In this document: positions 8,295 to 41,996 of the stretch, piece after piece
How positions within the stretch are numbered: position 1 is the stretch's first letter
Layout of the letters: each line of letters begins with the position of its first letter
Virus record (IMG/VR): IMGVR_UViG_3300044991_001618
Coordinates: 1-64,000 of that record
Length of the DNA stretch: 64,000 bases
Direction: 5' to 3' (one strand)
Origin: a virus
Notes under the pieces: generated by a model
The model's database searches: none
The model's input: only the letters and a program-made list of their open reading frames with translations
What the model was told of the DNA's origin: nothing
Translations under genes and position numbers: made by a program

Positions 8295-8798
8295 ATGGAA
8301 AAAGAAACATTAAAAAAGATATTCAATTTTCTTGAAAAGAATGATAACAGAAATGTACCATTTACTTGGAAATTATTAAATAATGAACCATTAACAGAAA
8401 AAGATTTAAATATTAAAGGTGATTTGGATTTAACAGAGACAAATATTAAATCATTACCAAATGGATTGAAAATTACTGGGAATTTGATTTTAACTGAAAC
8501 AGATATGAGATTCTTACCAGAAGGACTATTAGTTGGTGGCCATTTGGATTTATATGCTTCAAAAATAGACTCATTACCAAAGGGCTTGAAGGTTGGTGGG
8601 GATTTGAATATTGAAGGCACTTACATAGAATTATTACCAAGTGGCTTACAAGTTGGTGGTGATTTATATTTGAATGATAGTGATTTGCATCACAGCATAG
8701 ATTATAATGATAGTAATGAATTAAGGGATATTGTAAAAAAAATGGTTGAACCTGGTTTTATTAAAGGTAAGGTAATTTTTGATGACGATGATGATTGA
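8295..8798 (+). CDS. LRR family protein, array 1 gene 1
   Basis: MEKETLKKIF N-cap, LPxGLxVxGxLxL repeats, MVEPGFIKG C-cap. Confidence 0.85.
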   Translation: MEKETLKKIFNFLEKNDNRNVPFTWKLLNNEPLTEKDLNIKGDLDLTETNIKSLPNGLKITGNLILTETDMRFLPEGLLVGGHLDLYASKIDSLPKGLKVGGDLNIEGTYIELLPSGLQVGGDLYLNDSDLHHSIDYNDSNELRDIVKKMVEPGFIKGKVIFDDDDD

Positions 8799-8815
8799 TT
8801 TAAATTAAATATATT

Positions 8816-9286
8816 ATGGAAAAAGAAACAATAAAAAAGATATTTGATTTTCTTGAAGAAAATGGTGAGCATAATGCACCACTTATGTGGAAATTAAAAA
8901 ATAATGAACCAATAACAGAAGATGATTTGATTGTTAATGGTGATTTGAATTTGGGTCATTCAAAAATAACTTCACTACCAGAAGGCTTGGAAGTTGGTGG
9001 GTTTTTGGATTTAAGTTATTCACTTATAAACTCATTACCAGAAGGTTTAAAAGTTGGTGGGAGTTTATCTTTATTTGATTGTGCAATTATAACTTCACTA
9101 CCAGAAGGCTTGAAGGTTGGGCGTAATTTAGATTTAGGTTTTACAAAAATAATCTCATTACCAAGAGGGTTAAAAGTTGAGGGTTTTATAGATTTGAATG
9201 GTACAAAATTAACAGAATACACAGATGATGAATTAAGAAAAATGATTAAACCTGGATATATAAAAGGAAGAATAATTAAAGTTTAG
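8816..9286 (+). CDS. LRR family protein, array 1 gene 2
   Basis: Same caps and repeats. Confidence 0.85.
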   Translation: MEKETIKKIFDFLEENGEHNAPLMWKLKNNEPITEDDLIVNGDLNLGHSKITSLPEGLEVGGFLDLSYSLINSLPEGLKVGGSLSLFDCAIITSLPEGLKVGRNLDLGFTKIISLPRGLKVEGFIDLNGTKLTEYTDDELRKMIKPGYIKGRIIKV

Positions 9287-9289
9287 TTA

Positions 9290-9640
9290 ATGGAAAAAGA
9301 AACACTAAAAAAAATACTTGATTTTCTTAAACAGAATGAGAATAGAAATATTCCAATTGCTTGGAAATTAATAAATAATGAACCATTAACAGAAAAGGAA
9401 TTAACTATTGATCGTGATTTGGATTTAAAAGGTTCAACTATAAAATCCTTACCAGAATATTTAAATATTAAAGATGATTTGGATTTATCTCACACAAAAA
9501 TAACCTCATTACCAAAAGGATTAAAAGTTGGTGAAAATTTATATATTAAAAACAGCCCATTAACTAAATATTCAGATTATGAAATAATAAAAATGATTGC
9601 GCCTGGATATATTCAAGGTAAAATAGATAGAAGTTGGTAA
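9290..9640 (+). CDS. LRR family protein, array 1 gene 3 (shortest)
   Basis: Same caps, about 2 repeats. Confidence 0.85.
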   Translation: MEKETLKKILDFLKQNENRNIPIAWKLINNEPLTEKELTIDRDLDLKGSTIKSLPEYLNIKDDLDLSHTKITSLPKGLKVGENLYIKNSPLTKYSDYEIIKMIAPGYIQGKIDRSW

Positions 9641-9643
9641 ATT

Positions 9644-10189
9644 ATGGAAAAAGAAACATTAAAAAAGATATTTGATTTTATCAAAACAAAAGATAATAGA
9701 AATATTCCATTTATGTGGAAATTAAAAAATAATGAGCCAATAACAGAAGATGATTTGATTGTTAATGGTGATTTGGATTTGAGACCTAGTAGCATAGATT
9801 ACATGGATATAGAATCATTACCAGAAGGATTAAAAGTTTCTGGTCGTTTAGACCTTATGGGCTCAGATATGCAATTTTTACCAAAAGGCTTGGAAGTTGG
9901 TGGGTATTTGGATTTAAGTTATTCACTTATAAAATCATTACCAGAAGGATTAAAAGTTGGGGGGAGTTTATCTTTATTTGATTGTGCAAATATAACTTCA
10001 CTACCAGAAGGCTTGAAGGTTGGGGGCAATTTAGATTTAGGGGCTACAAATATAACATTATTACCAAGAGGGTTAAAAGTTGAGGGTTATATAGAGTTGA
10101 ATGGTACAAAATTAACAGGATACTCAGATGGTGAATTAAGAAATATGGTCAAACCTGGATATATAAAAGGAAGAATAATTAAATTTTAG
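9644..10189 (+). CDS. LRR family protein, array 1 gene 4
   Basis: Same caps and repeats; 3' half resembles gene 2. Confidence 0.85.
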   Translation: MEKETLKKIFDFIKTKDNRNIPFMWKLKNNEPITEDDLIVNGDLDLRPSSIDYMDIESLPEGLKVSGRLDLMGSDMQFLPKGLEVGGYLDLSYSLIKSLPEGLKVGGSLSLFDCANITSLPEGLKVGGNLDLGATNITLLPRGLKVEGYIELNGTKLTGYSDGELRNMVKPGYIKGRIIKF

Positions 10190-10192
10190 TTA

Positions 10193-10717
10193 ATGGAAAA
10201 AGAAACACTAAAAAAAATATTCAATTTTCTTGAAGAAAATGAAAGACATCAAACTCCATTTTTGTGGAAATGGGTAAATAATATACCATTAACAGAAAAA
10301 GATTTAAATATTGAAGGTAATTTGGATTTAACAGACACAGATATTAAATCATTACCAGATGGATTGAAAGTTGCTGGGAATTTGAATTTAACTGAAACAG
10401 ATATGGAATCATTACCAGAAAGATTGGAAGTTGCTGGTAATTTATATTTGGATCACAGTTTTATAAAATCATTACCAAAGGACTTGAAGGTTGGGGGGTA
10501 TTTGAGTATTGAAGCCACTTACATAAAATCATTACCAAGAGGCTTACAAGTTGGTGGTGATTTATATTTGAATGATAGTAAATTACTTAATAATATAGAT
10601 TATAATGATAGTAATGAATTAAGGGATATTGTAAAAAAAATGGTTGAACCTGGTTTTATTAAAGGTAATGTAATTTTTGATGAAGAAGGTGAGAATTGGC
10701 TTAAATCAGACATGTAA
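10193..10717 (+). CDS. LRR family protein, array 1 gene 5
   Basis: Same caps and repeats; closely resembles gene 1. Confidence 0.85.
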   Translation: MEKETLKKIFNFLEENERHQTPFLWKWVNNIPLTEKDLNIEGNLDLTDTDIKSLPDGLKVAGNLNLTETDMESLPERLEVAGNLYLDHSFIKSLPKDLKVGGYLSIEATYIKSLPRGLQVGGDLYLNDSKLLNNIDYNDSNELRDIVKKMVEPGFIKGNVIFDEEGENWLKSDM

Positions 10718-11268
10718 TGGAAAAAGAAACACTAAAAAACATACTTGATTTTCTTAAAGAAAAGGAAGGGAAATCATCTATTAGATGGAAATTATTACAT
10801 AATGAACCATTTACAGAAGAAGAGTTAAATGTTGATGGTAAGTTTATTTTTGATGGATTTTTGGATTTATCAGGCAAAAATATAACATCATTACCAAAAG
10901 GATTGGAAGTTAGGGGTAATTTATATTTAAGAAACTGTAAAAGTTTAACATCCTTACCAGAAGGATTGTCTGTTTGGGGGACTTTGGATTTAAAAGGTTC
11001 AACTATAAAATCCTTACCAGAAGGACTACTCCTTGGTGGTTTGAATTTAACAAATTGCAAAAGTTTAACATCCTTACCAGAAGGAATGAAAGTTGGTCGT
11101 GGTGGTTTGAATTTAACAAATTGCAAAAGTTTAACCTCATTACCAAAAGGATTAAAAGTTGGTGAAAATTTATATATTAAAAACAGCCCATTAGCAAAAT
11201 TTTCAGATGAGAGTTTAAAAGATATGATTGGATTAAATGGATATATAAAAGGAAAAATAGTTAGATAA
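10717..11268 (+). CDS. LRR family protein, array 1 gene 6
   Basis: Same caps; LxNCKSLTSLP repeats; TAATG overlap. Confidence 0.85.
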   Translation: MEKETLKNILDFLKEKEGKSSIRWKLLHNEPFTEEELNVDGKFIFDGFLDLSGKNITSLPKGLEVRGNLYLRNCKSLTSLPEGLSVWGTLDLKGSTIKSLPEGLLLGGLNLTNCKSLTSLPEGMKVGRGGLNLTNCKSLTSLPKGLKVGENLYIKNSPLAKFSDESLKDMIGLNGYIKGKIVR

Positions 11269-11747
11269 TGAAAAAAGAAACACTAAAAAAGATATTTGAT
11301 TTTCTTGAAGAAAATCATAATAAAAGAAAACCACTTATGTGGAAATTAAAAAACAATATACCAATAACAGAAAAAGATGATTTGATTGTTAAAGGTAGTT
11401 TGGATTTATCTAGTTCAAACATAACCTCACTACCAAAAGGTTTGGAAGTTAAAGGTGGTTTAAGTTTATATGAATCAGAAATAATCTCCTTACCAGAAGG
11501 CTTGAAGGTTGGGGGTGATTTAGATTTAAGAAATTCATATATAGAAAGTTTACCAGAAGGATTGGAAGTTGGGGATGAATTGGATTTAGCATATACATAC
11601 ATAACATCACTACCAAAAGGTTTAAAAGTTGGGAGTATTTTGATTATAATTGAGAGTGAATTATTAAAATATTCAGATAAAGAAATAAGAAAAATGATTG
11701 AACCTGGGTATATTAAAGGGAAAATAATTAGAGAATATTATAGATAA
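11268..11747 (+). CDS. LRR family protein, array 1 gene 7
   Basis: Same caps and repeats; TAATG overlap. Confidence 0.85.
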   Translation: MKKETLKKIFDFLEENHNKRKPLMWKLKNNIPITEKDDLIVKGSLDLSSSNITSLPKGLEVKGGLSLYESEIISLPEGLKVGGDLDLRNSYIESLPEGLEVGDELDLAYTYITSLPKGLKVGSILIIIESELLKYSDKEIRKMIEPGYIKGKIIREYYR

Positions 11748-11771
11748 TTTACTATATTTACACAAAAAAAC

Positions 11772-12569
11772 ATGGACAAAGAACTTTTAAAAGAAATATT
11801 ATCAATCCCCTCCTATTCGGGTGATGAAACAAAATTGGTTAATTTTATTACCAGTTATTTAGATGCTAACGATATCAAATACACATTAGATGAAATGAAA
11901 AACATTTATTGTGTGAAAGGTGAAGCAGAGTATTATCCTTGTGTCGTAGCACACACAGATACTGTCCATAACAACACTTTTATAGATGTTAGAACTGAAC
12001 TTAAACCAAACTCCAAAAGAGTCTTAAAAGAGGCGTATAAGGGTTATGATGTAAAAGGAAACCCAACAGGAATTGGTGGTGATGATAAGGCTGGAGTATT
12101 TGCTTGTCTTACTTTATTAAAGGAATTACCAGTAATAAAAGCGGCCTTTTTTGTTTCAGAAGAAATTGGTTGCGTGGGATCATTAAACGCTGATGCAAAT
12201 TTTTTCCTAGATGTGGGTTATGCAATTCAATTTGATGCCCCCTTTGATTGGATGGTAAGTGAAATATCTTCTGGAGTTAGATTATTTGACAGAGATAGCA
12301 AGTTCTTCACAAAGATAGATAAGGTATTAACAGAAAACACAAACCCCCAATATCAATCACACCCATATACCGATATATTTGCCTTAAAGAAATTATTTGA
12401 TTTTAGTTGTGTTAATATATCAATAGGATATTATGATTACCACACAAAGGATGAATATGTTGTTTTAGAAGATGTGGAGAAAGGAATTAAAATGGGCAGA
12501 GAAATGATAGAAAGTTTAGGATACAAGAAATATTACAAAAAATATAAACCATTAAGAATATTAGGATAA
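11772..12569 (+). CDS. M20/M28/M42-clan zinc aminopeptidase
   Basis: AHTDTV, GGDDKAG, EEIG, YH metal ligands. Confidence 0.85.
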   Translation: MDKELLKEILSIPSYSGDETKLVNFITSYLDANDIKYTLDEMKNIYCVKGEAEYYPCVVAHTDTVHNNTFIDVRTELKPNSKRVLKEAYKGYDVKGNPTGIGGDDKAGVFACLTLLKELPVIKAAFFVSEEIGCVGSLNADANFFLDVGYAIQFDAPFDWMVSEISSGVRLFDRDSKFFTKIDKVLTENTNPQYQSHPYTDIFALKKLFDFSCVNISIGYYDYHTKDEYVVLEDVEKGIKMGREMIESLGYKKYYKKYKPLRILG

Positions 12570-12573
12570 AAAG

Positions 12574-12600
12574 AAATGGGGGTTGTTAGCCCCCATTTTT
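12574..12600. terminator. bidirectional terminator
   Basis: AAATGGGGG...CCCCCATTTTT between convergent genes. Confidence 0.7.
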
Positions 12601-12602
12601 GT

Positions 12603-14603
12603 TTAGTTTAGAATAACATTTTCATCTTTTGCAGTTAATTGGTATTTACCCCCTTCTTTAACCACATCATTTAATACTTCATCAGAAATTAAATCTTCAA
12701 TTTTATCTTGAATTGCTCGTTTTATTGGTCTTGCACCATAAGTTTCATCAAACCCAATTTTTGATATTAAATCAACAACACTATCATCATAAGTGAAATT
12801 GTATTTTGATTCTTTTAGTCTATCAATCAACTTGTTAAGTTCAATTCTTGTGATTTTCTTAACATTATCATCATTTAATGTATTGAATACAACTGTATCA
12901 TCAATACGATTTAAGAATTCTGGTGAGAAAAACTTTTTAAGTTCAGCCATTAGCATAGATTTTTTTGCTTCTTCATTACCATATTTTGAACTAGTGAAAC
13001 TAATACCTGTACCAAAGTCAGAGAATTTCTTAATACCCAAGTTTGATGTTAAAATGATTATGGTATTTTTAAAATTAATTGTTTTTCCCATAGCATCAGT
13101 AAGATGACCATCATCCAGAATTTGCAATAATAAATGGAATACATCTTTATGTGCTTTTTCTATCTCATCAAATAAAATAACAGAATAAGGATTGTTTTTA
13201 ACTTTTTCAGTTAATTGACCACCTTCATCATGTGAAACATATCCTGGAGGTGAACCAATTAATCTTGATATGGTATGCTTTTCTTGGTATTCACTCATAT
13301 CAACACGAATTAGTGATTTTTCATTCCCAAACAATTGTTTTGCAAGTTGTTTTGCAAGATGCGTCTTACCAACACCTGTGGATCCCAAACAAATAAAACT
13401 ACCAATTGGTCGGTTGGGGTCTTTTATGTTTAATCTATTTCTCTTAATTGCTTTAACAATTGAATCAACTGCTTGGTCTTGCCCAATAACTTTATCTTTA
13501 ATCTTTTTATCAATATTGATAAGTTTTTGCTTTTCATCAAGATTTAATTGTTCAATTGGGATGTTTGTCATAATTGATACAACAGAATAAACATCTTCTT
13601 CATCAATTTTTCTTTTGTTTTTAATATTATCTTCTTCAAACTTTTTTGTTTCAGCATCAAGTTTGGTTAATAATTTTAATTCCTTATCCCTAATTTCAGC
13701 AGCCAATTCATATTCTTGGTTGATAACAACTCTTGTTTTTTCTTGTTTTAGTTCAGAAATTTTTTCTTTTAACTTTTTGATTGATTCTGGAATTTTAACT
13801 TCAACTTGTTGCCTTGCACCAACTTCATCAATAACATCAAATCCCTTATCTGGGAATGCTCTGTCTGTGATATATCTATCAGCCAATCTAACACATAATT
13901 CAATTATCTCATCACTATATATTGATTTATGAAATGATTCATATTTATCAATGGATTGTTTAATGATTGTTATTGTTTCTGCTATTGAGGGTTGTTCAAG
14001 TTTGATTTTTTGAAATCTTCTTGCTAATGCCCCATCTTTCTCAATTGATTTTTTATATTCATCAAATGTGGTTGCCCCAATGCATTGAATATCCCCAGAT
14101 GCTAATGCTGGCTTGAATATATTTGCACCATCCATAGAATTTGAAGAATTACCAGAGCCAATTAATGTGTGAATTTCATCAATAAACACAACCACATTTG
14201 GATTTGATGTTAATTCATCAATAATAACTTTCATTCTTTCTTCAAACTGACCCCTATATTTGGTTCCAGCAACAACAGATGTTAAATCCAAATTAACAAT
14301 TCTTTTGTTCAATAAATTTTGCGGACCTTCACCTTTTGAAATCATTAAAGCAACGCCTTCAATTAAGTTAGTTTTACCACAACCAGCCTCACCAAGGATT
14401 AATGGGTTGTTCTTTTTTCGTCTTGATAAGATTTGAGCCAATCTCTTAACCTCTTTCTCTCTACCAATTGACGCATCCAATTTCCCCATTTCAGCTAGTT
14501 TGGATAAATCCCTACTAAAATTGTCTAAGACTGGGGTTTTTGAACTTGAGGTATTTTTCTTACCTCTTGTTGTTTTTTCATCATCAAAATAGTCAACATT
14601 CAT
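12603..14603 (-). CDS. clpC: ClpC-type Hsp100 AAA+ ATPase lacking the N-terminal domain
   Basis: Two Walker A motifs (GEAGCGKT, GSTGVGKT), KYRGQFEER, UVR-like YELAAEIRD, GARP. Confidence 0.88.
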   Translation of the reverse strand: MNVDYFDDEKTTRGKKNTSSSKTPVLDNFSRDLSKLAEMGKLDASIGREKEVKRLAQILSRRKKNNPLILGEAGCGKTNLIEGVALMISKGEGPQNLLNKRIVNLDLTSVVAGTKYRGQFEERMKVIIDELTSNPNVVVFIDEIHTLIGSGNSSNSMDGANIFKPALASGDIQCIGATTFDEYKKSIEKDGALARRFQKIKLEQPSIAETITIIKQSIDKYESFHKSIYSDEIIELCVRLADRYITDRAFPDKGFDVIDEVGARQQVEVKIPESIKKLKEKISELKQEKTRVVINQEYELAAEIRDKELKLLTKLDAETKKFEEDNIKNKRKIDEEDVYSVVSIMTNIPIEQLNLDEKQKLINIDKKIKDKVIGQDQAVDSIVKAIKRNRLNIKDPNRPIGSFICLGSTGVGKTHLAKQLAKQLFGNEKSLIRVDMSEYQEKHTISRLIGSPPGYVSHDEGGQLTEKVKNNPYSVILFDEIEKAHKDVFHLLLQILDDGHLTDAMGKTINFKNTIIILTSNLGIKKFSDFGTGISFTSSKYGNEEAKKSMLMAELKKFFSPEFLNRIDDTVVFNTLNDDNVKKITRIELNKLIDRLKESKYNFTYDDSVVDLISKIGFDETYGARPIKRAIQDKIEDLISDEVLNDVVKEGGKYQLTAKDENVILN

Positions 14604-14801: not shown

Positions 14802-15215
14802 ATGAAAGACAGAGATTATTTAGCAGAGCTATTATTTGGATTATCAAATCCATTTGGCTTATCAAGTTCAGTACCGTTTGCATCAGATTCCACTTATGGT
14901 CATTATGGGATTAAACATAGCGCCTATGATAGTGAATATGATATTGAATTAACTAAGGATGGTGCATACATATCCTTTGAAGTTCCAGGTTTTACCAAAG
15001 ATAACTTAGAAATATCTATAGAAGATAGGGTAGTCATAATTAAAGGTGAAAGGGTTGTCAATAAGAAAGGCGAAGTTAAGAAAATACTTCACAAATACAA
15101 AGTTGATAGCAACTTTAATGAATCAAATATTGAAGCAACAGTATCAAATGGTATTTTAACATTATTCTTGCCAAATTATATTGCTAAACCTAAAAAAACA
15201 ATAACAATTAACTAA
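14802..15215 (+). CDS. small heat-shock protein (Hsp20/alpha-crystallin)
   Basis: [27 protein letters not shown]. Confidence 0.9.
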
Positions 15216-15646
15216 TGACAAAAGTAAAAATTGAAACAGCAAAGGGGGTGATGATTGCTGAATTGTATGACAATGAAACCCCAATTACCGTTGATAATTT
15301 TAAGAAATTAATCAATGAAGGATTTTATAATGGATTAAATTTCCATAGGGTTATTCCCAACTTTATGATACAAGGTGGTTGCCCAAATGGTGTTGGAAAT
15401 GGTGGACCAGGATATAATATTAAGTGTGAGGTTAATGCTGATAAACAACAACACGATAGGGGTGTATTGAGTATGGCTCATGCTGGTAGGGATACTGGGG
15501 GATCACAATTCTTCATATGTCATAATAGGCAAGGTGTTGCTCATTTGGATGGAAATCATACATGCTTTGGTAAAGTTGTTGATGGGTTGGATGTAATTGA
15601 TTCAATTAGCCAAGGTGATTTAATAAATAGTATTTCAATAATTTAA
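15215..15646 (+). CDS. cyclophilin-type peptidyl-prolyl isomerase
   Basis: [34 protein letters not shown]. Confidence 0.95.
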
Positions 15647-16116: not shown

Positions 16117-16143
16117 TATTATTTAAGTGTATTTTTCCATTCC

Positions 16144-16175
16144 ACCCCCATTCTTAATTAGTCTGGGGGTTTTTT
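16144..16175 (+). terminator. intrinsic terminator (copy 1 of a duplicated element)
   Basis: ACCCCCA-TTCTTAATTAGTC-TGGGGGT-TTTTT. Confidence 0.75.
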
Positions 16176-16208
16176 ATTTTTGGTATATTTATATATAAAA
16201 TTCAATTT

Positions 16209-21326: not shown

Positions 21327-21347
21327 TTTTTATTTTTCATAGAATTA

Positions 21348-21380
21348 ACCCCCATTCTTAATTAGTTTGGGGGTTTTTTT
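21348..21380 (+). terminator. intrinsic terminator (copy 2 of a duplicated element)
   Basis: ACCCCCA-TTCTTAATTAGTT-TGGGGGT-TTTTTT. Confidence 0.75.
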
Positions 21381-21410
21381 ATTTTGTATGTATTTATAAA
21401 AAAACAAAAT

Positions 21411-26251: not shown

Positions 26252-26289
26252 AACAAAACATTTTATATATTTATTATATAAAATATAAT

Positions 26290-28155: not shown

Positions 28156-28156
28156 A

Positions 28157-29145: not shown

Positions 29146-30930
29146 ATGCAATCTGAAAAAAATTTAGTAGAAGAAGCACTAATTCAAATGAAACAAATTG
29201 AAGATGTGCTTGCAGAAAACGCAAAAGGAATACTTGCTTCAACAATGAAGGAAGAAATCGAAGAATTAGTTAAAGAATCTTTAAATGAGCAAGCAGATAT
29301 TGAAGATGATGAAACTGATTTAGATATGGAAGATGATATGGATATGGAAGATGATATGGATATGGAGGATGATATGGAAGATGATATGGAAGATGATATG
29401 GATATGGAAGATGATATGGATATGGAAGATGATATGGATATGGAAGATGATATGGATATGGAGGATGATGTTATTGATATGAGGGGAGCATCACAAAGTG
29501 AACTTTTAAAAGTATTTAAAGCAATGGATGATGAAGATGGTATAATTATATCAAAAGATGGTAATGATATCTCATTAACTGATGATGGTGATGAATATTT
29601 AATAAGACTAGGAGAACAAATAGAAGATTTTGATTCAGATATGGGGAAAGGTAAACAATATTCACGTATGGTTCGTCATCTTAGTAATCAAATGGATGAT
29701 GGTGATGATGATTTAGAGGATGATTATATCAAGTCAAGTTATGGTGATGAAGAAGATGATGCTCAAGAATATGGTATGAGATATTTTAATGACGACGATG
29801 AAGAAGGTGATTTTGAACCTTTTGATGACGAAAACGAAGATATTGATGTGGACTATGCTATGAGCAAAAGACTTGGTTTGAAATATTTTAATGACAACAA
29901 AGAAGAAGATGATGATATGGAAGATGATATGGAGTTAGAAGAAGATGATACGCAATCAACAATTGATAAAATTTTTGAAAAAGCAAATAAACATAGCAAT
30001 GTTATTTATGAAATAGAAATGGAAGACGAAGAAGAGTTTGATGTAGAAGATGATGGTTATGAGATGGAAGATGAGGATTATGAAATGGAAGATGATGATT
30101 ATGAAATGGAAGATGATGAAGATTTTGATTGTTCTAATTTTAGCACTTCAGATTATTTAGCCAAAAATCCAAAAGCAACTATTTCTGATGTGTATGATTA
30201 CTTGAAAGAAAAAGGTTGTTTAAATGGTGGCGATGGTAATGTTGGAGAGAATTATAATTATTTAGGTGAGGCTAAAAAGACTTCCAAATTTAAGTACAAG
30301 ATGGCTAAAAACGGTTTTAATGAAAAAATGAAAGAGGGTCCTAAAAAAATGGGAACAGGTAAAGCCAAATTTAACTATGACAAATCCGCAGCAAATGTTG
30401 ATGGGAAAATGAAAAAAGTTACAACTGGTAAAAAACAAGAAACCAAAGAAGCATCAAGAACTTACGGAATGGGAAGTAAAGCAGGTAGAGGTCTTAGAAA
30501 AGGCGTAACACCAAATAGAAATTTACATTTAGAGGCTCTGGAAAACCAAGTTTCTGAATTAAAACAAACAAATAATGATTATAAAAAATCATTAAACATT
30601 TTTAGAGAGAAACTAAATGATGTTGCAGTTTTCAATGCTAATTTAGCATATGCAACAAGATTGTTTACTGAACACTCAACTACTAAAAAAGAAAAAATAA
30701 ACATTTTAAGACGATTTGATAATATTCAGACATTACAAGAATCTAAAAACTTGTATTCTGCTATTAACAATGAATTATCAAAAGATTCAAATTCGTCTTT
30801 AAATGAGTCTGTTAACCGTAAGATTTCAAATGTTGCGTCAACAGGTTCATCAGCTAACTTAATTGAATCAAAAACTTATGAAAATCCTCAATTTTTGAGG
30901 ATGAAGGATTTGATGGGTAAATTAGGTTAA
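29146..30930 (+). CDS. prohead core scaffold protein (gp22-like)
   Basis: Highly acidic, coiled-coil C-terminus, immediately upstream of the major capsid gene. Confidence 0.8.
   Translation: MQSEKNLVEEALIQMKQIEDVLAENAKGILASTMKEEIEELVKESLNEQADIEDDETDLDMEDDMDMEDDMDMEDDMEDDMEDDMDMEDDMDMEDDMDMEDDMDMEDDVIDMRGASQSELLKVFKAMDDEDGIIISKDGNDISLTDDGDEYLIRLGEQIEDFDSDMGKGKQYSRMVRHLSNQMDDGDDDLEDDYIKSSYGDEEDDAQEYGMRYFNDDDEEGDFEPFDDENEDIDVDYAMSKRLGLKYFNDNKEEDDDMEDDMELEEDDTQSTIDKIFEKANKHSNVIYEIEMEDEEEFDVEDDGYEMEDEDYEMEDDDYEMEDDEDFDCSNFSTSDYLAKNPKATISDVYDYLKEKGCLNGGDGNVGENYNYLGEAKKTSKFKYKMAKNGFNEKMKEGPKKMGTGKAKFNYDKSAANVDGKMKKVTTGKKQETKEASRTYGMGSKAGRGLRKGVTPNRNLHLEALENQVSELKQTNNDYKKSLNIFREKLNDVAVFNANLAYATRLFTEHSTTKKEKINILRRFDNIQTLQESKNLYSAINNELSKDSNSSLNESVNRKISNVASTGSSANLIESKTYENPQFLRMKDLMGKLG
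29322..29469 (+). repeat. GATATGGA(A/G)GATGATATG tandem repeat encoding (DMEDDM)n
   Basis: Directly visible 18/12-bp units. Confidence 0.9.
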
Positions 30931-34503: not shown

Positions 34504-34535
34504 CAAATATACTACAAGTTGAATTAAATAGCAAA
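34504..34535 (-). promoter_or_regulatory. Bacteroidota-type primary-sigma promoter
   Basis: TTTG-N20-TATATTTG. Confidence 0.6.
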
Positions 34536-35090
34536 TTCTGTTTCATCCCAATCAGGATCCTCATTTAATATAATACCTTTAATATATCCAGGTTTAACCA
34601 TTTTTTTTAATTGATTTTCAGTGTATTTGGTTAATTTTGTGTAAGTTATGTTTATTCCATCATCAACTTTCAATCCTTTTGGTAATGATTGTAATTTGTA
34701 ACAATGATTTAAATATAATGTACCATTAACTTTTAATCCTTCTGGTAATGATTCAAGTTTTTCACAGCCATATAAATCCAAATCACCCCCAACTTTCAAT
34801 AGTTCTGGTAATGATTTTATATTTGAATGTTCTAAAGATAACTCGCCCCCAACTTCCAAGTCTTCTGGTAATGAAGTTATTTTTGAATAATCTAAATTCA
34901 AATTGCCACTAACTTTCAATCCTTCTGGTAATGAAGTTATTTTAAAATTTGATAAATCCAAATCATCATTAACAATTAAATCTTCTTTTGTTAATGGTGA
35001 ACCATTTGTTATTTTCCATAAAAATGGAATTTTTGTACCATCTAACTTTTCAATAAAATTAAATATATTCTTTAGTGTTTCTTTTTCCAT
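34524..35090 (-). CDS. LRR family protein, array 3
   Basis: Caps and repeats. Confidence 0.85.
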   Translation of the reverse strand: MEKETLKNIFNFIEKLDGTKIPFLWKITNGSPLTKEDLIVNDDLDLSNFKITSLPEGLKVSGNLNLDYSKITSLPEDLEVGGELSLEHSNIKSLPELLKVGGDLDLYGCEKLESLPEGLKVNGTLYLNHCYKLQSLPKGLKVDDGINITYTKLTKYTENQLKKMVKPGYIKGIILNEDPDWDETEFAI

Positions 35091-35494
35091 TATCTAATTA
35101 TATTATTTATATATCCAGGATTAACCATTTGCCTTAATTCCTCAGTTGAATATTTTGTTAATGGTGTATTTTTAATAAACAAACGACCCCAAACTTTCAA
35201 CCCTTTTGGTAATGATGTTATATTTGAATGTCCCAAATCCAAATCCTCCCCAACTTTTAATCCTTCTGGTAATGATTGTATATTTTTACAACCATATAAA
35301 CTTAAAATATCCTCAACGTTCAATCCATCTGGTAATGATTCAATATCTGTTTCTGTTAAATCCAAATCCCCTTCAACAAATAACTCTTCATCTGTTAATG
35401 GTTCATTATTCATTAATTTCCACATAAATGGTTTATCCTTATTTTCTTCTTCTTCAAGGAATGTAAATATCTTTTTTAGTGTTTCTTTTTCCAT
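35090..35494 (-). CDS. LRR family protein, array 3
   Basis: Caps and repeats; TAATG overlap. Confidence 0.85.
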   Translation of the reverse strand: MEKETLKKIFTFLEEEENKDKPFMWKLMNNEPLTDEELFVEGDLDLTETDIESLPDGLNVEDILSLYGCKNIQSLPEGLKVGEDLDLGHSNITSLPKGLKVWGRLFIKNTPLTKYSTEELRQMVNPGYINNIIR

Positions 35495-36141
35495 TATCTT
35501 TCTATATTTCCAAGTATAAATCCTGGTTTAACCATTTTTCTTAATTCATTATCTGAAAATTTTGCTAACCCAGAGTCGTGAATGGCCAAATTACCATAAA
35601 CCTCCAACCCTTTTGGTAATGAAGTTAAATTTTTGCAACGCATTAAATCTAACAATCTATTAACTTTTAATCCTTTTGGTAAAAATCCTATCTCTGAATC
35701 CTCCAAAGATAATATACCAACTTCCATTCCTTCTGGTAATGATTCCAAATATGGGGTGGTATTTAAATTTAATTCACCTTCAATTTTTAATCCTTTTGGT
35801 AATGATTGTATTTGTGTATATGATAAATCCAAATCTAATTTAACTTTTAATCCTTTTGGTAATTTTCTTATTTCTGTATAATTTAAAACTAAATGCCCTC
35901 CAACTTCCAATCCTTCTGGTAATGATTTAATATCTGAATTTTGTAAAAACAAATCACCTTCAACTTTCAATCCTTCTGGCAATTCTTCTATCTCTAAATC
36001 TGATAAATTCAAATCACCTTTAACATGTAAATCATCTTCTGTGAATGGAAAACCATTTGACCATTTCCACCTAAGTGGCGTATTCCTATTATCCTTCTTT
36101 TCAAGGAAATTAAATATCTTCTTTAATGTTTCTTTTTCCAT
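35494..36141 (-). CDS. LRR family protein, array 3
   Basis: Caps and repeats. Confidence 0.85.
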   Translation of the reverse strand: MEKETLKKIFNFLEKKDNRNTPLRWKWSNGFPFTEDDLHVKGDLNLSDLEIEELPEGLKVEGDLFLQNSDIKSLPEGLEVGGHLVLNYTEIRKLPKGLKVKLDLDLSYTQIQSLPKGLKIEGELNLNTTPYLESLPEGMEVGILSLEDSEIGFLPKGLKVNRLLDLMRCKNLTSLPKGLEVYGNLAIHDSGLAKFSDNELRKMVKPGFILGNIER

Positions 36142-36605
36142 TATCTATATATATATCTATTTAAAAAACTAGGCTCAACCATTTTTATTAATTCATCATC
36201 TGAAAATTTTGCTAATGGTGTTCCACCAATAAACAAATTTTGCCCAACTTTCAATCCTTTTGGTAATGATGCTATTTCAGAGTAGGATAAATCCAAATCA
36301 ACCCCAACTTCTAATCCTTCTGGCATAGAAGTTATTCTTGTGTTTGATAAATCTAAATGTCTCCCAACTTTCAATCCTTTTGGTAATGATTTAATATCAG
36401 AAAATTGTAAATACAAGTCACCTTCAACATATAAATTATCTGGCAATGTTTCTATCCCTGAATCTGAAAAATCCAAATCACCTTTAATATGCAAATCATC
36501 TTCTGTTAATGGTTCACCACTTGACCATTTCCATAATAATGGTGCTCTTATTTCATCATTCTTTTCAAGAAATTTAAATATCTTCTTTAATGTTTCTTTT
36601 TCCAT
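36141..36605 (-). CDS. LRR family protein, array 3
   Basis: Caps and repeats. Confidence 0.85.
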   Translation of the reverse strand: MEKETLKKIFKFLEKNDEIRAPLLWKWSSGEPLTEDDLHIKGDLDFSDSGIETLPDNLYVEGDLYLQFSDIKSLPKGLKVGRHLDLSNTRITSMPEGLEVGVDLDLSYSEIASLPKGLKVGQNLFIGGTPLAKFSDDELIKMVEPSFLNRYIYR

Positions 36606-36608: not shown

Positions 36609-37031
36609 CTATCCTTTCTTCCACTTTCCACCCAATTTCTTATACCTTTTTGCCGCAGCACCATTACAATATGCGCTTGGGCATACTTTATACCTAGACC
36701 TTGCCCAACTCAAACATTGACTCCATAACTTGGGATTTGTTGGTTTATTCTTTTTTTCCTTTGCTTCTGTTATGTTCTGGCTATCCCTATTTTCAAATTC
36801 ATTCATCATAAAATCAAAAACTTGATCCAAGTTTTCTTTTGCAACTGTCACATGGTCATCAGCCCAATCATGGCCATTGGTCAACAATTCATTAATTTCA
36901 TCAGGTTGAAATTCAAGCAATAATTCACATTGTCTTTTAATTTGTTTTAAGTTTCCAAAAAACATATAATTTTCTGTTGCTTGCTCATTTATTGCATTCT
37001 TAACAATTTTTTTAATTACTGGATGTATCAT
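36609..37031 (-). CDS. hypothetical protein with a C-terminal PSAY motif
   Basis: HDWADDH; KPTNPKLW...CPSAYCNG; preceded by TATTTAT. Confidence 0.7.
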   Translation of the reverse strand: MIHPVIKKIVKNAINEQATENYMFFGNLKQIKRQCELLLEFQPDEINELLTNGHDWADDHVTVAKENLDQVFDFMMNEFENRDSQNITEAKEKKNKPTNPKLWSQCLSWARSRYKVCPSAYCNGAAAKRYKKLGGKWKKG

Positions 37032-37170
37032 ATCTTATTTTTTATTATAAATATCATTATTCTTTATTTTGATTATGGCTCTCATATTTTGATTTTAAGG
37101 GACTTTTTGTTTTAGCCTATTACTATGTCATCTTTATTAAAATCTGCTGTTGTGGTTAAATTGTATGTGG

Positions 37171-37710
37171 TTATATCCTAATTATTCTACCTATACGCCC
37201 AGGTTTAACCATTTCTCTTAATTCAGCATCTGAAAATTTGTCTAAACTATCTCCAACACTCACGGCTAAATATCCATTAACTTCCAATCCTTTTGGTAAT
37301 CTTTTTATTGGTGTATCCATTATTGATAACCAAAGGTCAATTACTAGCCCTTCTGGTAATGAAGTTATTTTTGTATTATGCAAATACAAAGAAGCACCAA
37401 TTTTAATATCATTTGGTATGTTTTTTATAATTGAATGCGATAACTCCAGAGAACCATCAACTTTTAACCCTTTTGGTAATTCTTCTATTTTTGAAAATCT
37501 AGTAATCATTCTACCTTTAACTTCCAAATTATCTGGTAATGATTTTAAAGTTGAATCTGTTAAATCTAAATCACCATTAACAATTAAATCTTCTTTTGTT
37601 AGGGGATCACCAAGTTTTAATTTCCAAATAAAGGTATCTCTATCTTTATGTTTTTTGTTTTCTTTCTTTTCAAGGAAATCAAATATATTTTTTATTGCTT
37701 CTTTTTCCAT
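37171..37710 (-). CDS. LRR family protein, array 4
   Basis: Caps and repeats. Confidence 0.85.
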   Translation of the reverse strand: MEKEAIKNIFDFLEKKENKKHKDRDTFIWKLKLGDPLTKEDLIVNGDLDLTDSTLKSLPDNLEVKGRMITRFSKIEELPKGLKVDGSLELSHSIIKNIPNDIKIGASLYLHNTKITSLPEGLVIDLWLSIMDTPIKRLPKGLEVNGYLAVSVGDSLDKFSDAELREMVKPGRIGRIIRI

Positions 37711-38318
37711 TATCTAATTATTTGCTCCTTTATAAATCCAGGTTTAACCATATTTCTTAATTCTTCATCAGAAAATTTTACTAATGGTGATCCACTTATA
37801 ATTAAAATCCCCCTAACTTTCAACCCTTTTGGTAATGATGTTAAACTTGTGCAATTTTCTAAATACAAATCACGGCCAACTTCCAATCCTTCTGGCAAGG
37901 ATGTTAAACTTGTGCAATTTTCTAAATCTAAATTATGCGCAACTTTCAATCCTTTTGGTAAAGATATTAAATTTGTGGAATTTTCTAAATATAAAGACGC
38001 TCCAAGTTCTAATCCTCTTGGCAGTGAAATTAAATCTTCACAACCTTCTAAATCTAAACGACCCCCAACTTTTAAGTTATCAGGTAATGATTTAATAGAT
38101 GAATAATTTAAAATCAAATAACCACCAACTTTCAACCCATCTGGTAATGAGGTTATTTTTGAATATGATAAATCCAAATTACCTTTTACATTTAACTCTT
38201 CTTCTGTTATTGGTTCATCAAATTTTAATTTCCAAATAATGCTATCCCTATCTTTATGTTTTTTATTTTCTTTCTTTTCAAGGAAATCAAATATATTTTT
38301 TATTGCTTCTTTTTCCAT
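37710..38318 (-). CDS. LRR family protein, array 4
   Basis: Caps and repeats; first 25 aa identical to the 37171..37710 protein. Confidence 0.85.
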   Translation of the reverse strand: MEKEAIKNIFDFLEKKENKKHKDRDSIIWKLKFDEPITEEELNVKGNLDLSYSKITSLPDGLKVGGYLILNYSSIKSLPDNLKVGGRLDLEGCEDLISLPRGLELGASLYLENSTNLISLPKGLKVAHNLDLENCTSLTSLPEGLEVGRDLYLENCTSLTSLPKGLKVRGILIISGSPLVKFSDEELRNMVKPGFIKEQIIR

Positions 38319-38797
38319 TATCTAATTATTTTACCATTTATAAACCCATCTGGTTCAACCATTTCTCTTATTTTTTCATCTGAAAGTTTTGCTAATGGAG
38401 TTTTTACAATATGTAAATTACGTTCAACTTTTAAACCTTTTGATAATGTTTCTATATCTGAATATGTTAAATCTAAATCGCGACCAACATATAAATCACC
38501 TGGCAAGGATTTGAAACTTGTCCATTCAAAATTCAAATCACCCTCAACAAATAATTTTTCTGGGAATGTTTTTAAACTTGAGAACCGAAAATCAGCATTT
38601 CCTATAACTTTTAACCCTTTTGGTAAATGTTGTATATTTATGCCAGATATATCCAAATCGCCTCTAACAATTAAATCTTCTTTTGTTAATGGTTCATTAA
38701 ACATAAATTTCCACCTTAAAGTTCCTTTGTTTTTATGTTTTTTATTGTCTTCTTTTTCAAGAAAATCAAGTATATTTTTTAGTGTTTCTTTTTCCAT
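38318..38797 (-). CDS. LRR family protein, array 4
   Basis: Caps and repeats. Confidence 0.85.
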   Translation of the reverse strand: MEKETLKNILDFLEKEDNKKHKNKGTLRWKFMFNEPLTKEDLIVRGDLDISGINIQHLPKGLKVIGNADFRFSSLKTFPEKLFVEGDLNFEWTSFKSLPGDLYVGRDLDLTYSDIETLSKGLKVERNLHIVKTPLAKLSDEKIREMVEPDGFINGKIIR

Positions 38798-39267
38798 TAT
38801 CTAATTATATTTCCTTTAAATGAACCATTATTTAAATTTTTATTTCTTCTTATTTCAGCATCTGTATATTTTTTGGCAAGGAAGGATTCTCCTATATATA
38901 AATTACCACCAACATATAAATTTTTTGGGATTTCTTCTATATCTGAATGTCTAAAATACAAATCACCCCCAACATATAAATTGTCTGGTAATGATTCTAT
39001 ATTTGTATGGGATAAGTTAAAACTATCCTTAACATATAACCCTTCTGGTAATGAGTTTATTTCTGATCCCAACAACCACAATTTACCTTCAACTCTCATC
39101 CCATTAGGTAATGAGGTTATAGTTGTAAATTCCAAATTTAAATTGCCTTTTATATTTAAATCCTCTTTTGTTAGTTCATTATTTACCCATTTCCATAAAA
39201 ATGGTGTTTTGATATCATCATTTTCTTCAAGGAAATCAAATATTCTTTTTAATGTTTCTTTTTCCAT
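38797..39267 (-). CDS. LRR family protein, array 4
   Basis: Caps and repeats; variant C-cap EIRRNKNLNNGSFKGNIIR. Confidence 0.85.
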   Translation of the reverse strand: MEKETLKRIFDFLEENDDIKTPFLWKWVNNELTKEDLNIKGNLNLEFTTITSLPNGMRVEGKLWLLGSEINSLPEGLYVKDSFNLSHTNIESLPDNLYVGGDLYFRHSDIEEIPKNLYVGGNLYIGESFLAKKYTDAEIRRNKNLNNGSFKGNIIR

Positions 39268-39740
39268 TATCTAATTATATTTCCTTTAAATGAACCATTA
39301 TTTAAATTTTTATTTCTTCTTATTTCACCATCTGTATATTTTTTGGCGAGGGGGGTCTCTTCTATATCTAATTCACCACCAACGTATAAATTTTTTGGTA
39401 TTTCTCCTATATTTGAATATTTAAACCATAAATCACCCCCAACATATAAATTGTCTGGTAATGATTCAATATATGTATGTGATACATCCAAACTACCCTT
39501 AACATATAGCCCTTCTGGTAATGTTTTTATTGCTGATGCAAATAATGACAAATCACCTTGAACTCTCAATCCCTCTGGTAATGAGGTTATTGCTGAATGA
39601 TTTAAAATTAAATCCCCATCAAAATTTAATTCATCTTCTGTAAATGGGTGATTAATTTTTACTTTATAAGCAAAAGGTTTTGGTCTATTTTCCTCTTTCT
39701 CAAGGAATTCAATTATTTTTTTTAATGTTTCTATTTCCAT
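39267..39740 (-). CDS. LRR family protein, array 4
   Basis: Caps and repeats; same variant C-cap. Confidence 0.85.
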   Translation of the reverse strand: MEIETLKKIIEFLEKEENRPKPFAYKVKINHPFTEDELNFDGDLILNHSAITSLPEGLRVQGDLSLFASAIKTLPEGLYVKGSLDVSHTYIESLPDNLYVGGDLWFKYSNIGEIPKNLYVGGELDIEETPLAKKYTDGEIRRNKNLNNGSFKGNIIR

Positions 39741-40279
39741 TACTCTCTTAATATTCCTTTTATAAATCCAGGTTTAACCATTTCTTTTAATTCAGCATTA
39801 GAAAATTTGGATAAACTATCATTACTATTTAAAACTAAATAACCCTTAATTATCAATCCTTTTGGTAATGAAGTTATTTTTGTTTTCTGCAAATACAAAG
39901 AACCACCAATTTCAATATCATCAGGTATATTTTTTATTTTTGAGTTCCTTAAATTCAAATTACCACCAACTTTCAATCCTTTTGGTAGTGATTCTATATT
40001 TGAACTTGCTAAAGATAAATAATCCCCAACTTCTAACCCTTCTGGTAATGAGACTATTGCCGAACAACCCATTAAATTAACCCAACCCTTAACTCTTAAT
40101 CCTTCTGGTAATGATGTTACTTTTGTATATGATAATTCCAAATTACCATTAATATTTAATTCATCATATGTTAATTCATTAAATATAACCTTCCATTTAA
40201 AACTACCTTTATCTCGGGGCATTTTATTTTCTTCCTTTTCAAGAAAATCAAGTATTTTTTTAAATGTTTTATTTTCCAT
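39740..40279 (-). CDS. LRR family protein, array 4
   Basis: Caps and repeats. Confidence 0.85.
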   Translation of the reverse strand: MENKTFKKILDFLEKEENKMPRDKGSFKWKVIFNELTYDELNINGNLELSYTKVTSLPEGLRVKGWVNLMGCSAIVSLPEGLEVGDYLSLASSNIESLPKGLKVGGNLNLRNSKIKNIPDDIEIGGSLYLQKTKITSLPKGLIIKGYLVLNSNDSLSKFSNAELKEMVKPGFIKGILRE

Positions 40280-40282
40280 TAT

Positions 40283-40696
40283 CTACATATTTCCTATTAT
40301 TTCTCCTATATAACCATTTGGCTTTATCATATTCAATAATTCATTGTCTGAAATTTCTGTAAATTTTGTTCTGTAAATATATAAACTACCCCCAACTTTC
40401 AAGTCTTTTGGTAATGAGGTTAAACCCCAACACCCAGCTAACCATAAATTACCCTCAACTTCCAATCCTTCTGGTAATGTTTTTATATCTGAGTCTGTTA
40501 AATCTAAAACACGCCCAACTTTCAATCCTTCTGGTAATGAAGTTATTTTAAAATTTGATAAATCCAAATTACCTTCAATATTTAAATCTTTTTCTGTTAA
40601 GGGTTCATTATTTTTTACTTTATAAGCAAAAGGTTTTTTTCTATTTTCTTCCTTCTCAAGGAATTCAAGTATTCTTTTTAATGTTTCTTCTTTCAC
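40283..40696 (-). CDS. LRR family protein, array 4
   Basis: Caps and repeats; GTG start overlaps the upstream TGA. Confidence 0.85.
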   Translation of the reverse strand: MKEETLKRILEFLEKEENRKKPFAYKVKNNEPLTEKDLNIEGNLDLSNFKITSLPEGLKVGRVLDLTDSDIKTLPEGLEVEGNLWLAGCWGLTSLPKDLKVGGSLYIYRTKFTEISDNELLNMIKPNGYIGEIIGNM

Positions 40697-41289
40697 AATC
40701 TTGATATTTTTTCTTTTATAAATCCAGGATAAACCATTTCTCTTAATTGTCCATCTGTGTATTTTCGTAATGGGGTATTTTCTATATACAATACCCCCCT
40801 AACTTCTAACCCTTTTGGTAATGATGTTATTTTTGTATCTTTTAAATTCAAATATTTACCAACTTTTAATCCTTCTGGTAGTGAAATTAAATCTTTGCAA
40901 GAATATAAATCCAAAAAACCCCTAATTTTTAAGTCATTAGGTAATGAACTAATGGATGTATAATTTAAATGCAAATTACCACCAACTTTCAATCCTTTTG
41001 GTAATGAGGTTATTTTTGAATATGCTAAAAACAAATGCTTCCCAACTTTTAATCCTTCTGGTAATGATTGTATTCTTGAAAATGTTAAAATTAAGTCCCC
41101 CTCAACTTTTAACCCTTCTGGTAATGATTCTATACTTGAGTACATTAAATTCAAATCATCTTTTATATTTAATTCATCTTTTGTTAATGGTTTATTAAAT
41201 AATAACTTCCACCTTAAATTATTTTTAGGTATTACCCCTTCCTTTTCTTCAAGAAAATCAAGTATTTTTTCAATTGTTTCTTTTTCCAT
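40693..41289 (-). CDS. LRR family protein, array 4
   Basis: Caps and repeats. Confidence 0.85.
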   Translation of the reverse strand: MEKETIEKILDFLEEKEGVIPKNNLRWKLLFNKPLTKDELNIKDDLNLMYSSIESLPEGLKVEGDLILTFSRIQSLPEGLKVGKHLFLAYSKITSLPKGLKVGGNLHLNYTSISSLPNDLKIRGFLDLYSCKDLISLPEGLKVGKYLNLKDTKITSLPKGLEVRGVLYIENTPLRKYTDGQLREMVYPGFIKEKISRL

Positions 41290-41996
41290 TATCTAACTAT
41301 TTTTCCTTTTATAAATCCAGGTTGAATCATCTTTCTTAATCTATAATTACTAATTTCATCTAAATGGGAAAGATTCAACATTATAGATCCATAAACTTTC
41401 AATCCTTTTGGTAATGAGGTTAAATCTGTTAGTCTTAAATCCAAATCACCACCAACTTTTAAACCTTCTGGCAATGATTGTATATTTTTACAACCAAATA
41501 ACACCAAATCTTTCCTAACTTCAAGTCCTTCTGGTAATGAAGTTATTTTTGTATTATTTAAAACTAAATGCCCTCCAACTTTCAATCCTTCTGGTAATGA
41601 AGTTATTTTTGTATTATTTAAATACAAATCCCTACCAACTTTCAATCCTTTTGGTAGCAAGGTTATATCTGTATTAGATGAAAACAAATCACCACCAACT
41701 TCCAATCCTTCAGGTAATGATGTTATTTTTGTTGAACCTAAATTCAAATTACCCCCAACTTTCAAACCTTCTGGCAATGAGGTTATTTTTGATCTTCTTA
41801 AATCGAAATTACCACCAACTTTCAAACCTTCTGGTAATGAGGTTATTGTTGTTTCATAAAACCACAAATTACCTATAACATCTAAATCTTCTTTGGTTAT
41901 TGGCTCATTATTTAATATTTTCCATTTAAATGGTGCTCTATGTTCTCCTTTCTCTTCAAGGAATTCAAATATTCTTTTTAATGTTTCTTTTTCCAT
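41289..41996 (-). CDS. LRR family protein, array 4 (about 8 repeats)
   Basis: Near-identical 60-bp KITSLPEGLKVGG units. Confidence 0.85.
   Translation of the reverse strand: MEKETLKRIFEFLEEKGEHRAPFKWKILNNEPITKEDLDVIGNLWFYETTITSLPEGLKVGGNFDLRRSKITSLPEGLKVGGNLNLGSTKITSLPEGLEVGGDLFSSNTDITLLPKGLKVGRDLYLNNTKITSLPEGLKVGGHLVLNNTKITSLPEGLEVRKDLVLFGCKNIQSLPEGLKVGGDLDLRLTDLTSLPKGLKVYGSIMLNLSHLDEISNYRLRKMIQPGFIKGKIVR

Follow-up and report, generated by a model that had tools for sequence, protein, structure and literature searches.

A diversified, recombining family of small leucine-rich repeat proteins encoded by a large uncultured T4-type phage

Introduction

Several described systems come close to the subject of this study, a family of small leucine-rich repeat (LRR) proteins encoded in tandem arrays on a 64,000-nucleotide stretch of viral DNA (positions 1 to 64,000 of IMG/VR record IMGVR_UViG_3300044991_001618; hereafter the window). 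With respect to fold, the nearest is FlrP of Vibrio alginolyticus (PDB 8z5u/8z5w/8z60), which is Sec-exported, periplasmic and bound to the rod of the polar flagellar motor (bioRxiv 10.64898/2025.12.04.692373). The internal proteins of T-even phages have been described as diverse defence proteins whose sole common part is a capsid-targeting sequence (PMC3012670). In terms of paralogous expansions, the jumbo phage Goslar encodes ten proteins in which a constant DUF7941 module is followed by variable carbohydrate-binding, hydrolase or LRR/beta-helix ends, and which have been proposed to act as host-recognition fibres, and Iyer et al. described a 35-copy zinc-ribbon expansion in phage G as "unprecedented" (PMC7824862).

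No account of a phage LRR multigene family turned up in our literature searches, in agreement with an earlier model-made reading of the window from its letters alone (the sequence-only reading), which knew of no described phage system of this kind. The parts are familiar, namely the LRR fold, tandem families that evolve by birth and death, and the repeat expansions of giant viruses; what is new is to find them together, on such a scale, in a bacteriophage.

The window makes up the first 64 kb of a 112,963-bp record that is AT-rich (28% GC) and to which CheckV assigns a completeness of 36%. The record carries a T4-type head module, in which the large terminase, portal, gp21-type prohead protease and major capsid protein were recognized by Pfam and PHROG matches, and the nearest relatives of its major capsid protein belong to huge uncultured phages, a Microcystis phage, Flavobacterium phage immuto and Rhodothermus phage RM378. 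The phage is a distant T4-type myovirus of large or jumbo size. The comparison set comprised 60 related loci (L005-L064), and one 270-kb relative, 90% complete, was examined in full.

Results

All 23 LRR open reading frames (ORFs) of the window are intact, encode 116-253 amino acids (aa), and occupy the four arrays given by the sequence-only reading: 8295-11747 (+ strand, seven genes), 26993-28747 (+, three genes), 34524-36605 (-, four genes) and 37171-41996 (-, nine genes). The family is larger than the 23 genes counted by that reading. Specifically, a fifth array of ten genes is found outside the window, at 95758-101289 of the record, and the record holds 33 family members in total, or 15.6% of its DNA. 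The 270-kb relative contains 41 members in nine places, amounting to 22 kb and 8.2% of its genome.

An alignment of the 33 LRR proteins of the record (A1) bears out the expectation of shared caps at both ends. The N-terminal region comprises a helix (residues 3-15), a linker that varies in length and composition, and then W-K...N-x-P-x-T-x-x-D-L, giving the N-cap consensus M-E-K-E-T-L-K-K-I-F-x-F-L-E ... W-K ... N-x-P-x-T-x-x-D-L; the C-cap consensus is S-D-x-E-L-R-x-M-V-x-P-G-x-I-K-G-x-I-I-R. Between these ends each protein has two to eight LP-anchored units, in addition to one partial unit within the N-cap. The units are 20 aa long in 93 cases, 21 aa in 28 cases (with a Cys at position 16) and 22 aa in one case, matching the estimate of about 2-8 repeats of 20-22 residues. 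No transmembrane stretch was found in the LRR proteins (the highest 19-residue Kyte-Doolittle mean is 1.25), nor any signal peptide, the N-terminus being a charged amphipathic helix; this too agrees with what had been read from the letters. Isoelectric points (pI) range from 4.3 to 9.3, and a uniform DNA-binding or charge-neutralizing role is therefore unlikely.

The assignment to the LRR superfamily is supported at the level of both profile and predicted structure. A search of the PDB with the family profile returned 8z5u chain 0 (Vibrio FlrP) with an E-value of 1.6e-31, along with many further LRR proteins. The AlphaFold2 (AF2) model of the 235-aa member at 41289-41996, built with the family alignment, is a solenoid (pLDDT 95.4, pTM 0.87) with N-terminal helices at residues 3-15 and 23-28, and two short C-terminal helices, in which each repeat contributes two short strands (repeat positions 6-7 and 11-12). 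In Foldseek the best match to this model was again FlrP (8z5u_0; TM-score 0.83, root-mean-square deviation 2.2 Å, 34% identity), followed by IpaH/SspH1/SlrP, Leptospira LRR proteins, SHOC2 and the variable lymphocyte receptors (VLRs) of lampreys and hagfish. Pfam LRR matches of single sequences fell below the curated cut-offs. Taken together, the predicted structure and the profile match place these proteins in the LRR superfamily, in a short 20/21-residue, FlrP-like subclass, and the LRR solenoid proposed in the sequence-only reading stands.

Within this scaffold, variability is sharply site-specific. No sequence recurs among the 121 units of 20 or 21 aa, and a per-site entropy calculation separates a nearly fixed framework (below 1 bit at repeat positions L1, P2, L5, V7, L11, L13 and I18, 1.2 bits at T/S16 and 1.75 bits at S20) from positions 10, 12, 14, 15 and 17, where entropy exceeds 3 bits and D, N, S, Y, H and R are abundant. 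K, E or G predominate at repeat positions 3, 6 and 8, which lie on the other strand and the opposite face. In the canonical LRR motif LxxLxLxxNxL, the ligand-contact face is formed by the x positions and comprises the beta-strand face and the ascending loop. Because the V-G-G-x-L-x-L-x-x-T-x-I stretch of the phage repeat aligns with that motif, the hypervariable residues fall at classical ligand-contact positions, a mapping that draws on the canonical motif and on the model's DSSP string rather than on coordinates. On that mapping, hypervariability is confined to positions of the concave strand and is not spread evenly over the protein.

The content of the arrays turns over between phage strains. 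Five array sites are common to the record and the 270-kb relative, and their gene numbers are unequal, with seven genes in the record versus two in the relative at the site of array 1, three versus three at array 2, four versus none at array 3, nine versus six at array 4, and ten versus eight at array 5. In closer relatives, whose flanking proteins are 80-100% identical, LRR members are absent, duplicated, or replaced by paralogues of 45-65% identity, and so the arrays of related phages are not identical; one related contig has two LRR genes where the record has ten, between flanks that are 99% identical. Within the family, exact DNA blocks of 108, 74, 62, 61, 53 and 53 nt are shared by otherwise diverged paralogues. 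Some of these blocks stand at different repeat positions, and some link arrays that are separated by 30 kb or lie on opposite strands. In the 270-kb relative, the genes at 205033-205371 (-) and 224373-224888 (-) keep the N-cap and differ at their C-terminal ends, and they may be truncated or chimeric.

Two known routes to such diversity were considered and rejected. No cap-less LRR modules were found outside the 33 genes, each of which is a complete ORF with its own start and both caps, and this completeness rules out somatic or cassette-type assembly. Diversification by a diversity-generating retroelement was likewise rejected, as no reverse transcriptase (no RVT_1 match) is present in the 113-kb record, which represents about 36% of a genome.

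Substitution patterns were measured in orthologue pairs of at least 75% identity, a cut-off that biases the sample. In 78 LRR pairs the synonymous divergence (dS) was 0.085 and the ratio of nonsynonymous to synonymous divergence (dN/dS) was 0.50, as compared with 0.40 and 0.14 in 197 pairs of other genes. This contrast is also seen gene by gene inside single contigs, and across L005-L064 the synonymous divergence of LRR orthologues is several-fold below that of neighbours on the same contigs. When 69 unique orthologue pairs were divided by site class, the ratio of nonsynonymous to synonymous differences per site (pN/pS) was 0.79 at variable, 0.49 at semi-variable and 0.21 at framework positions, 0.63 in the N-cap and 0.52 in the C-cap. 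The synonymous component (pS) was low in every class (0.07-0.10), and the nonsynonymous component (pN) was 0.071 at variable sites versus 0.015 at framework sites. Against the 270-kb relative, with no identity cut-off applied, pN was 0.245 for LRR genes and 0.089 for the backbone; LRR pairs were only 60% identical in protein, yet their pS of 0.345 was still below the backbone value of 0.51. We read these figures as reflecting an exposed face that evolves fast, with cassette exchange or gene conversion probably holding synonymous divergence down. In general, the low LRR synonymous divergence suggests recent cassette exchange or sweeps, or else homogenization at the nucleotide level. The genes adjoining arrays, at 11772-12569, 36609-37031 and 26290-26991, show intermediate synonymous divergence.

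In terms of expression, most junctions between LRR genes are one-base TAATG overlaps within a conserved AGATAATG, and the same type of junction is also formed with upstream genes from outside the LRR family. Since the genes are complete and translationally coupled, the set is expected to be co-expressed rather than one variant per cell. A promoter-like octamer, ATATTTAT, occurs 70 times in the record, and 23 of the 70 copies precede a same-strand start by no more than 60 nt, as against 3.6% expected; most of these stand 21-32 nt upstream, where enrichment is about 10-fold. The corresponding figure in the 270-kb relative is 50 of 137 (2.9% expected), and a 20-kb block of tiny genes in that genome, resembling an early region, is devoid of the octamer. 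The motif directly precedes arrays 1 and 5 and the lead-in genes of arrays 2, 3 and 4. In the window, these copies are at 8270-8277 (+), 25 nt upstream of the first gene of array 1; at 26267-26274 (+), upstream of the prohead protease and array 2; at 37047-37054 (-), upstream of the gene at 36609-37031 and array 3; and at 43518-43525 (-), upstream of the gene at 42004-43506 and array 4. It is also found ahead of the tail sheath, the prohead protease, the scaffold-like gene and other genes of the head module.

The setting of array 2 also bears on timing. Directly upstream is the T4 gp21-type prohead protease (26290-26991, +; Peptidase_S77, 2.5e-24; phrog_207, 8.8e-43), and between the array and the major capsid gene is a very acidic, scaffold-like protein (29146-30930, +), a role suggested by its position and composition. 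This 594-aa protein is basic in its middle part, contains very long D/E/M-rich tracts and ends in a helical C-terminus that is conserved; it returned no family match and no PDB relative, and comparison ruled out its being a capsid paralogue. It is probably the prohead scaffold. The order protease, array 2, scaffold-like gene, capsid gene is kept in all relatives. The promoter context, together with the location of array 2 beside the prohead protease, points to late expression.

The repeat type itself is widespread, as the profile is matched (E-values up to 0.001) by 10,368 clusters at 50% identity, among which long proteins are numerous. NEL E3-ligase (PF14496) or PcfJ-like (PF14284) domains are found in longer relatives with the same repeats, and a Pfam scan of ten long relatives added little. 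Relatives in BFVD include LRR proteins of "uncultured Caudovirales", podovirus LRR-E3-ligase proteins and giant-virus LRR families. The small capped form has at least 1,379 metagenomic relatives. Among cultured phages, a protein search yielded a single homologue, gp47 of Edwardsiella phage Edno5 (L004:5992-6735), and a nucleotide search gave trivial matches only. Edno5 gp47 has seven 20-aa repeats that are almost identical to one another and belong to the LRR type described here, joined to an unrelated C-terminal domain of about 80 aa, and its gene is located in the early accessory region of this lambdoid, temperate phage, between the repressor region and cIII/exo/bet. In the genomes of bacterial species, distant repeat-only matches were seen in Chlamydiae and the caps in none. 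Six LRR members gave no Pfam match to F-box, PRANC or NEL domains.

The individual genes of the window are arranged as follows. Array 1 (+) opens with g01 (8295-8798, 167 aa) and continues with g02 (8816-9286, 156 aa) and g03, the shortest member (9290-9640, 116 aa), all three assigned by the family hidden Markov model and alignment A1. Next are g04 (9644-10189, 181 aa), for which many metagenomes hold orthologues of 81-99% identity, roughly 30 in number, g05 (10193-10717, 174 aa), g06 (10717-11268, 183 aa), with Cys-type repeats of 21/22 aa, and g07 (11268-11747, 159 aa), which closes the array. Array 2 (+) opens with g08 (26993-27754, 253 aa), whose start is one base past the stop of the prohead protease, and is completed by g09 (27754-28155, 133 aa) and g10 (28157-28747, 196 aa). 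On the minus strand, array 3 opens directly after the gene at 36609-37031 with g14 (36141-36605, 154 aa), followed by g13 (35494-36141, 215 aa), g12 (35090-35494, 134 aa) and, closing the array, g11 (34524-35090, 188 aa). Array 4 (-) opens with g23, the member modelled with AF2 (41289-41996, 235 aa), and proceeds through g22 (40693-41289, 198 aa), g21 (40283-40696, 137 aa from a GTG at 40696, taking the longest ORF), g20 (39740-40279, 179 aa), g19 (39267-39740, 157 aa), g18 (38797-39267, 156 aa), g17 (38318-38797, 159 aa) and g16 (37710-38318, 202 aa) to g15 (37171-37710, 179 aa).

Several other features of the record deserve mention. A transfer-messenger RNA (tmRNA) at 7713-8134 (-), just upstream of array 1, was identified by ARAGORN (its tag ends in AVVAA) and by Rfam (RF00023, 82.6 bits). 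Near it and array 1 is a set of proteostasis genes, encoding ClpP (555-1211, -), a two-ring Clp ATPase without Clp_N (12603-14603, -), Hsp20 (14802-15215, +) and, judged by eye, a probable cyclophilin-type isomerase (15215-15646, +). Beyond the window, a superoxide dismutase gene of the Fe/Mn type (95024-95725 of the record, -) is divergent from array 5, and an 1114-aa outer-membrane beta-barrel protein with a CarboxypepD_reg domain and a signal-peptide-like N-terminus is encoded at 86901-90245 (-); the latter is shared with the 270-kb relative (87% conserved). Operon ends carry recurrent, almost identical GC-rich hairpins, CCCCCATTCTTAATTAG-T-TGGGGG followed by a T run, which look like conserved terminators; they are at about 16117-16208 and 21327-21383 of the window and near 93460-93486 and 111123-111232 of the record. 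Two large islands of sugar-nucleotide and glycosyltransferase-like genes were recognized by eye at 51851-63964 of the window (-) and 64000-84500 of the record, and by the same inspection they include GDP-mannose dehydratase-like and epimerase-like N-termini.

Discussion

The interpretation that we prefer, and to which we give about an even chance of being correct, is that this is a germline-encoded, recombination-shuffled family of small soluble LRR binders that would recognize many host molecules. Specifically, each protein is predicted to be a solenoid of three to nine turns of 20/21-residue repeats held between constant caps, whose canonical LRR ligand face differs from member to member and is rich in D, N, S, Y, H and R. 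The arrays appear to be transcribed as translationally coupled operons from the type of promoter used by head and tail genes, and on these grounds the whole LRR set would be produced jointly and late in infection. Such a set would most likely serve to recognize many different host molecules, with the proteins acting as host-range or counter-defence factors, and the repertoire changes between phage strains, on this interpretation through unequal crossing-over, cassette replacement and gene conversion. The analysis shows the fold, the site-specific variability, the recombination, the turnover between strains and the operon context, and from these the binding of host targets, the timing of expression and the location are inferred. 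The use of this repeat type as a targeting domain, as in the longer relatives that join it to NEL or PcfJ-like domains, also argues for such a role.

Where in the infection cycle these binders might act could be answered in two ways, and we consider them about equally probable. The conserved N-terminal helix may direct the proteins into the prohead, from which they would be injected along with the DNA in the manner of the T4 internal proteins, or the proteins may act in the cytoplasm of the infected cell. The cytoplasmic inhibitors or decoys of defence proteins put forward in the sequence-only reading are a candidate of the second kind; the promoter context and the place of array 2 beside the prohead protease would also suit packaging or display on the virion. 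Packaging is suggested by the prohead-core position of array 2, by the shared promoter type, and by the combination of an N-terminal amphipathic helix with a variable hydrophilic linker, and by analogy it has a precedent in the injected defence proteins of T-even phages with their common capsid-targeting sequence. The cytoplasmic alternative is favoured by analogy with the Edno5 homologue, given its early-region position. A bolder version of the packaged alternative, in which prohead-loaded LRR binders form an injected, antibody-like arsenal, each neutralizing another host defence protein or sensor, with cassettes swapped between co-infecting phages and repertoires tracking local host immunity, is a rather unlikely extension.

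A number of observations weigh against the interpretation as host-directed binders, or against its packaged form. The variable-site pN/pS of 0.79 among orthologues falls short of proof of diversifying selection, and relaxed constraint therefore accounts for the variability equally well. The paralogue ratio at variable sites is higher, at 1.19, with synonymous sites near saturation in a 28% GC genome, and for this reason it is not used as evidence of selection. Moreover, exposed x positions are variable in every LRR protein. The ATATTTAT octamer also stands ahead of the Clp ATPase gene and the DNA polymerase operon, and since it precedes such non-structural genes late expression is unproven. 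With respect to packaging, all members conserve the N-terminal helix, but the T4-type cleavage motif F-[LI]-x-E is found in only 37 of 74 N-termini from the two genomes, a count to be read with the caveat that the specificity of this protease may differ; a strict T4 cleavage motif for all members is ruled out by the same count. The N-terminal helix, modelled at pLDDT 83-85, would also fit an integral element of the fold or cap, and the C-cap is conserved too, which a targeting peptide leaves unexplained.

Other explanations draw on part of the same evidence. Display on the virion surface, with the caps docking on a common capsid or tail site and the variable faces acting as mixed adhesins that widen adsorption range, is in our estimate unlikely. 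Such a role would suit the promoter-like motif that the arrays share with head and tail genes, the location of array 2 inside the head module and of arrays 3 and 4 after probable baseplate genes, and the missing export signal, which virion proteins do not need; the Goslar DUF7941 family provides a precedent, and the nearest solved relative, FlrP, is a structural LRR protein that binds a large assembly. The phage proteins, however, are very small, monomer-like solenoids lacking a fibre, trimerization or known attachment domain, 30-40 competitors for one docking site would be unusual, and the Edno5 homologue is encoded in an early, non-structural region. The placement of array 2 among prohead core genes is also compatible with neutral expansion of a single structural or chaperone role, such as a prohead core filler or assembly chaperone, in which all members would do one job, the variable face would be free of constraint and copy number would drift by unequal crossing-over. 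Although this account gains from a variable-site pN/pS below 1, from similarly relaxed caps (0.5-0.6) and from the ease with which tandem repeats with conserved ends recombine, we regard it as rather improbable: 33-41 intact, coupled ORFs without pseudogenes, taking up 8-16% of the genome, would be costly without selection, variability is found on one face only and the opposite exposed face stays K/E/G, pI spans 4.3-9.3, and orthologues are conserved in many samples.

The location of ClpP, the two-ring Clp ATPase without Clp_N, Hsp20 and tmRNA next to array 1 raises a further idea, that the LRR proteins are adaptors for phage proteolysis whose caps bind the phage Clp machinery and whose variable faces deliver host proteins for degradation, much as F-box/LRR or ankyrin/PRANC families do in viruses of eukaryotes. 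The fusion of related LRRs to NEL E3 ligases in other proteins is in keeping with it. Against this, no adaptor or degron motif was detected, the Pfam search of six members gave no F-box or PRANC match, and Clp genes are near only one of the five arrays, leaving the adaptor hypothesis a very remote one.

If the LRR proteins do bind host factors, as the preferred interpretation would have it, they would be the largest host-interaction family of a single fold so far known from any phage. Phages could then keep a broad and quickly reshuffled germline repertoire for recognition, in parallel to plant R-gene clusters and to the module logic of VLRs, and the cassettes, to judge from their unusually low synonymous divergence, may pass from one phage lineage to another more quickly than other parts of the genome do. 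Were the injected arsenal real, it would add to phage counter-defence a new class based on a single programmable scaffold. For uncultured aquatic jumbo phages, the family provides a direct way into the study of host range or counter-defence, and, being very small (116-250 aa), Cys-poor and naturally diversified, it is also a binder scaffold for protein engineering.

In comparison with known systems, FlrP resembles the phage proteins in being a small single-domain solenoid of the same LRR subclass with the short repeat LPxGLxVxGxLxLxxTxI, but it is single-copy and has a Sec signal, whereas the phage proteins have no signal peptide, possess their own caps and are encoded by 33-41 genes. IpaH/SspH/SlrP and the PcfJ-like proteins use a short LRR of the 20-residue class for target recognition (TM-score about 0.55); the phage proteins differ as stand-alone LRRs with no NEL or PcfJ domain. 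The T-even internal proteins IPI, IPII and IPIII are likewise diverse small proteins with a conserved N-terminus, associated with a gp21-type protease and polymorphic between phages, and half of the LRR N-termini have F-[LI]-x-E, comparable to the E-F-I-A-E of T4. The T4 proteins, by contrast, represent a few unrelated folds, and here one LRR scaffold with a conserved C-cap is present in dozens of copies.

On the eukaryotic side, plant R-gene clusters and the LRR, F-box/LRR and ankyrin expansions of giant viruses share birth-and-death evolution, mosaic paralogues, strain-specific copy number and variability at solvent-exposed strand residues with the family described here, which belongs to a bacteriophage and consists of far smaller proteins without NB-ARC, F-box or other effector domain. 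The likeness to lamprey and hagfish VLRs, on which the sequence-only reading had built its comparison, holds for the architecture: in both, LRR modules in varying number stand between constant caps, and hypervariability falls on the concave strands; VLRs are indeed among the fold matches. It does not extend to somatic assembly or to the details of the modules. VLRs are assembled somatically from donor cassettes, with one receptor per cell, and have Cys-knot caps and 24-residue LRRV modules, whereas the phage genes are complete, coupled, germline and predicted to be co-expressed, with helical caps that lack conserved Cys and repeats of 20/21 aa.

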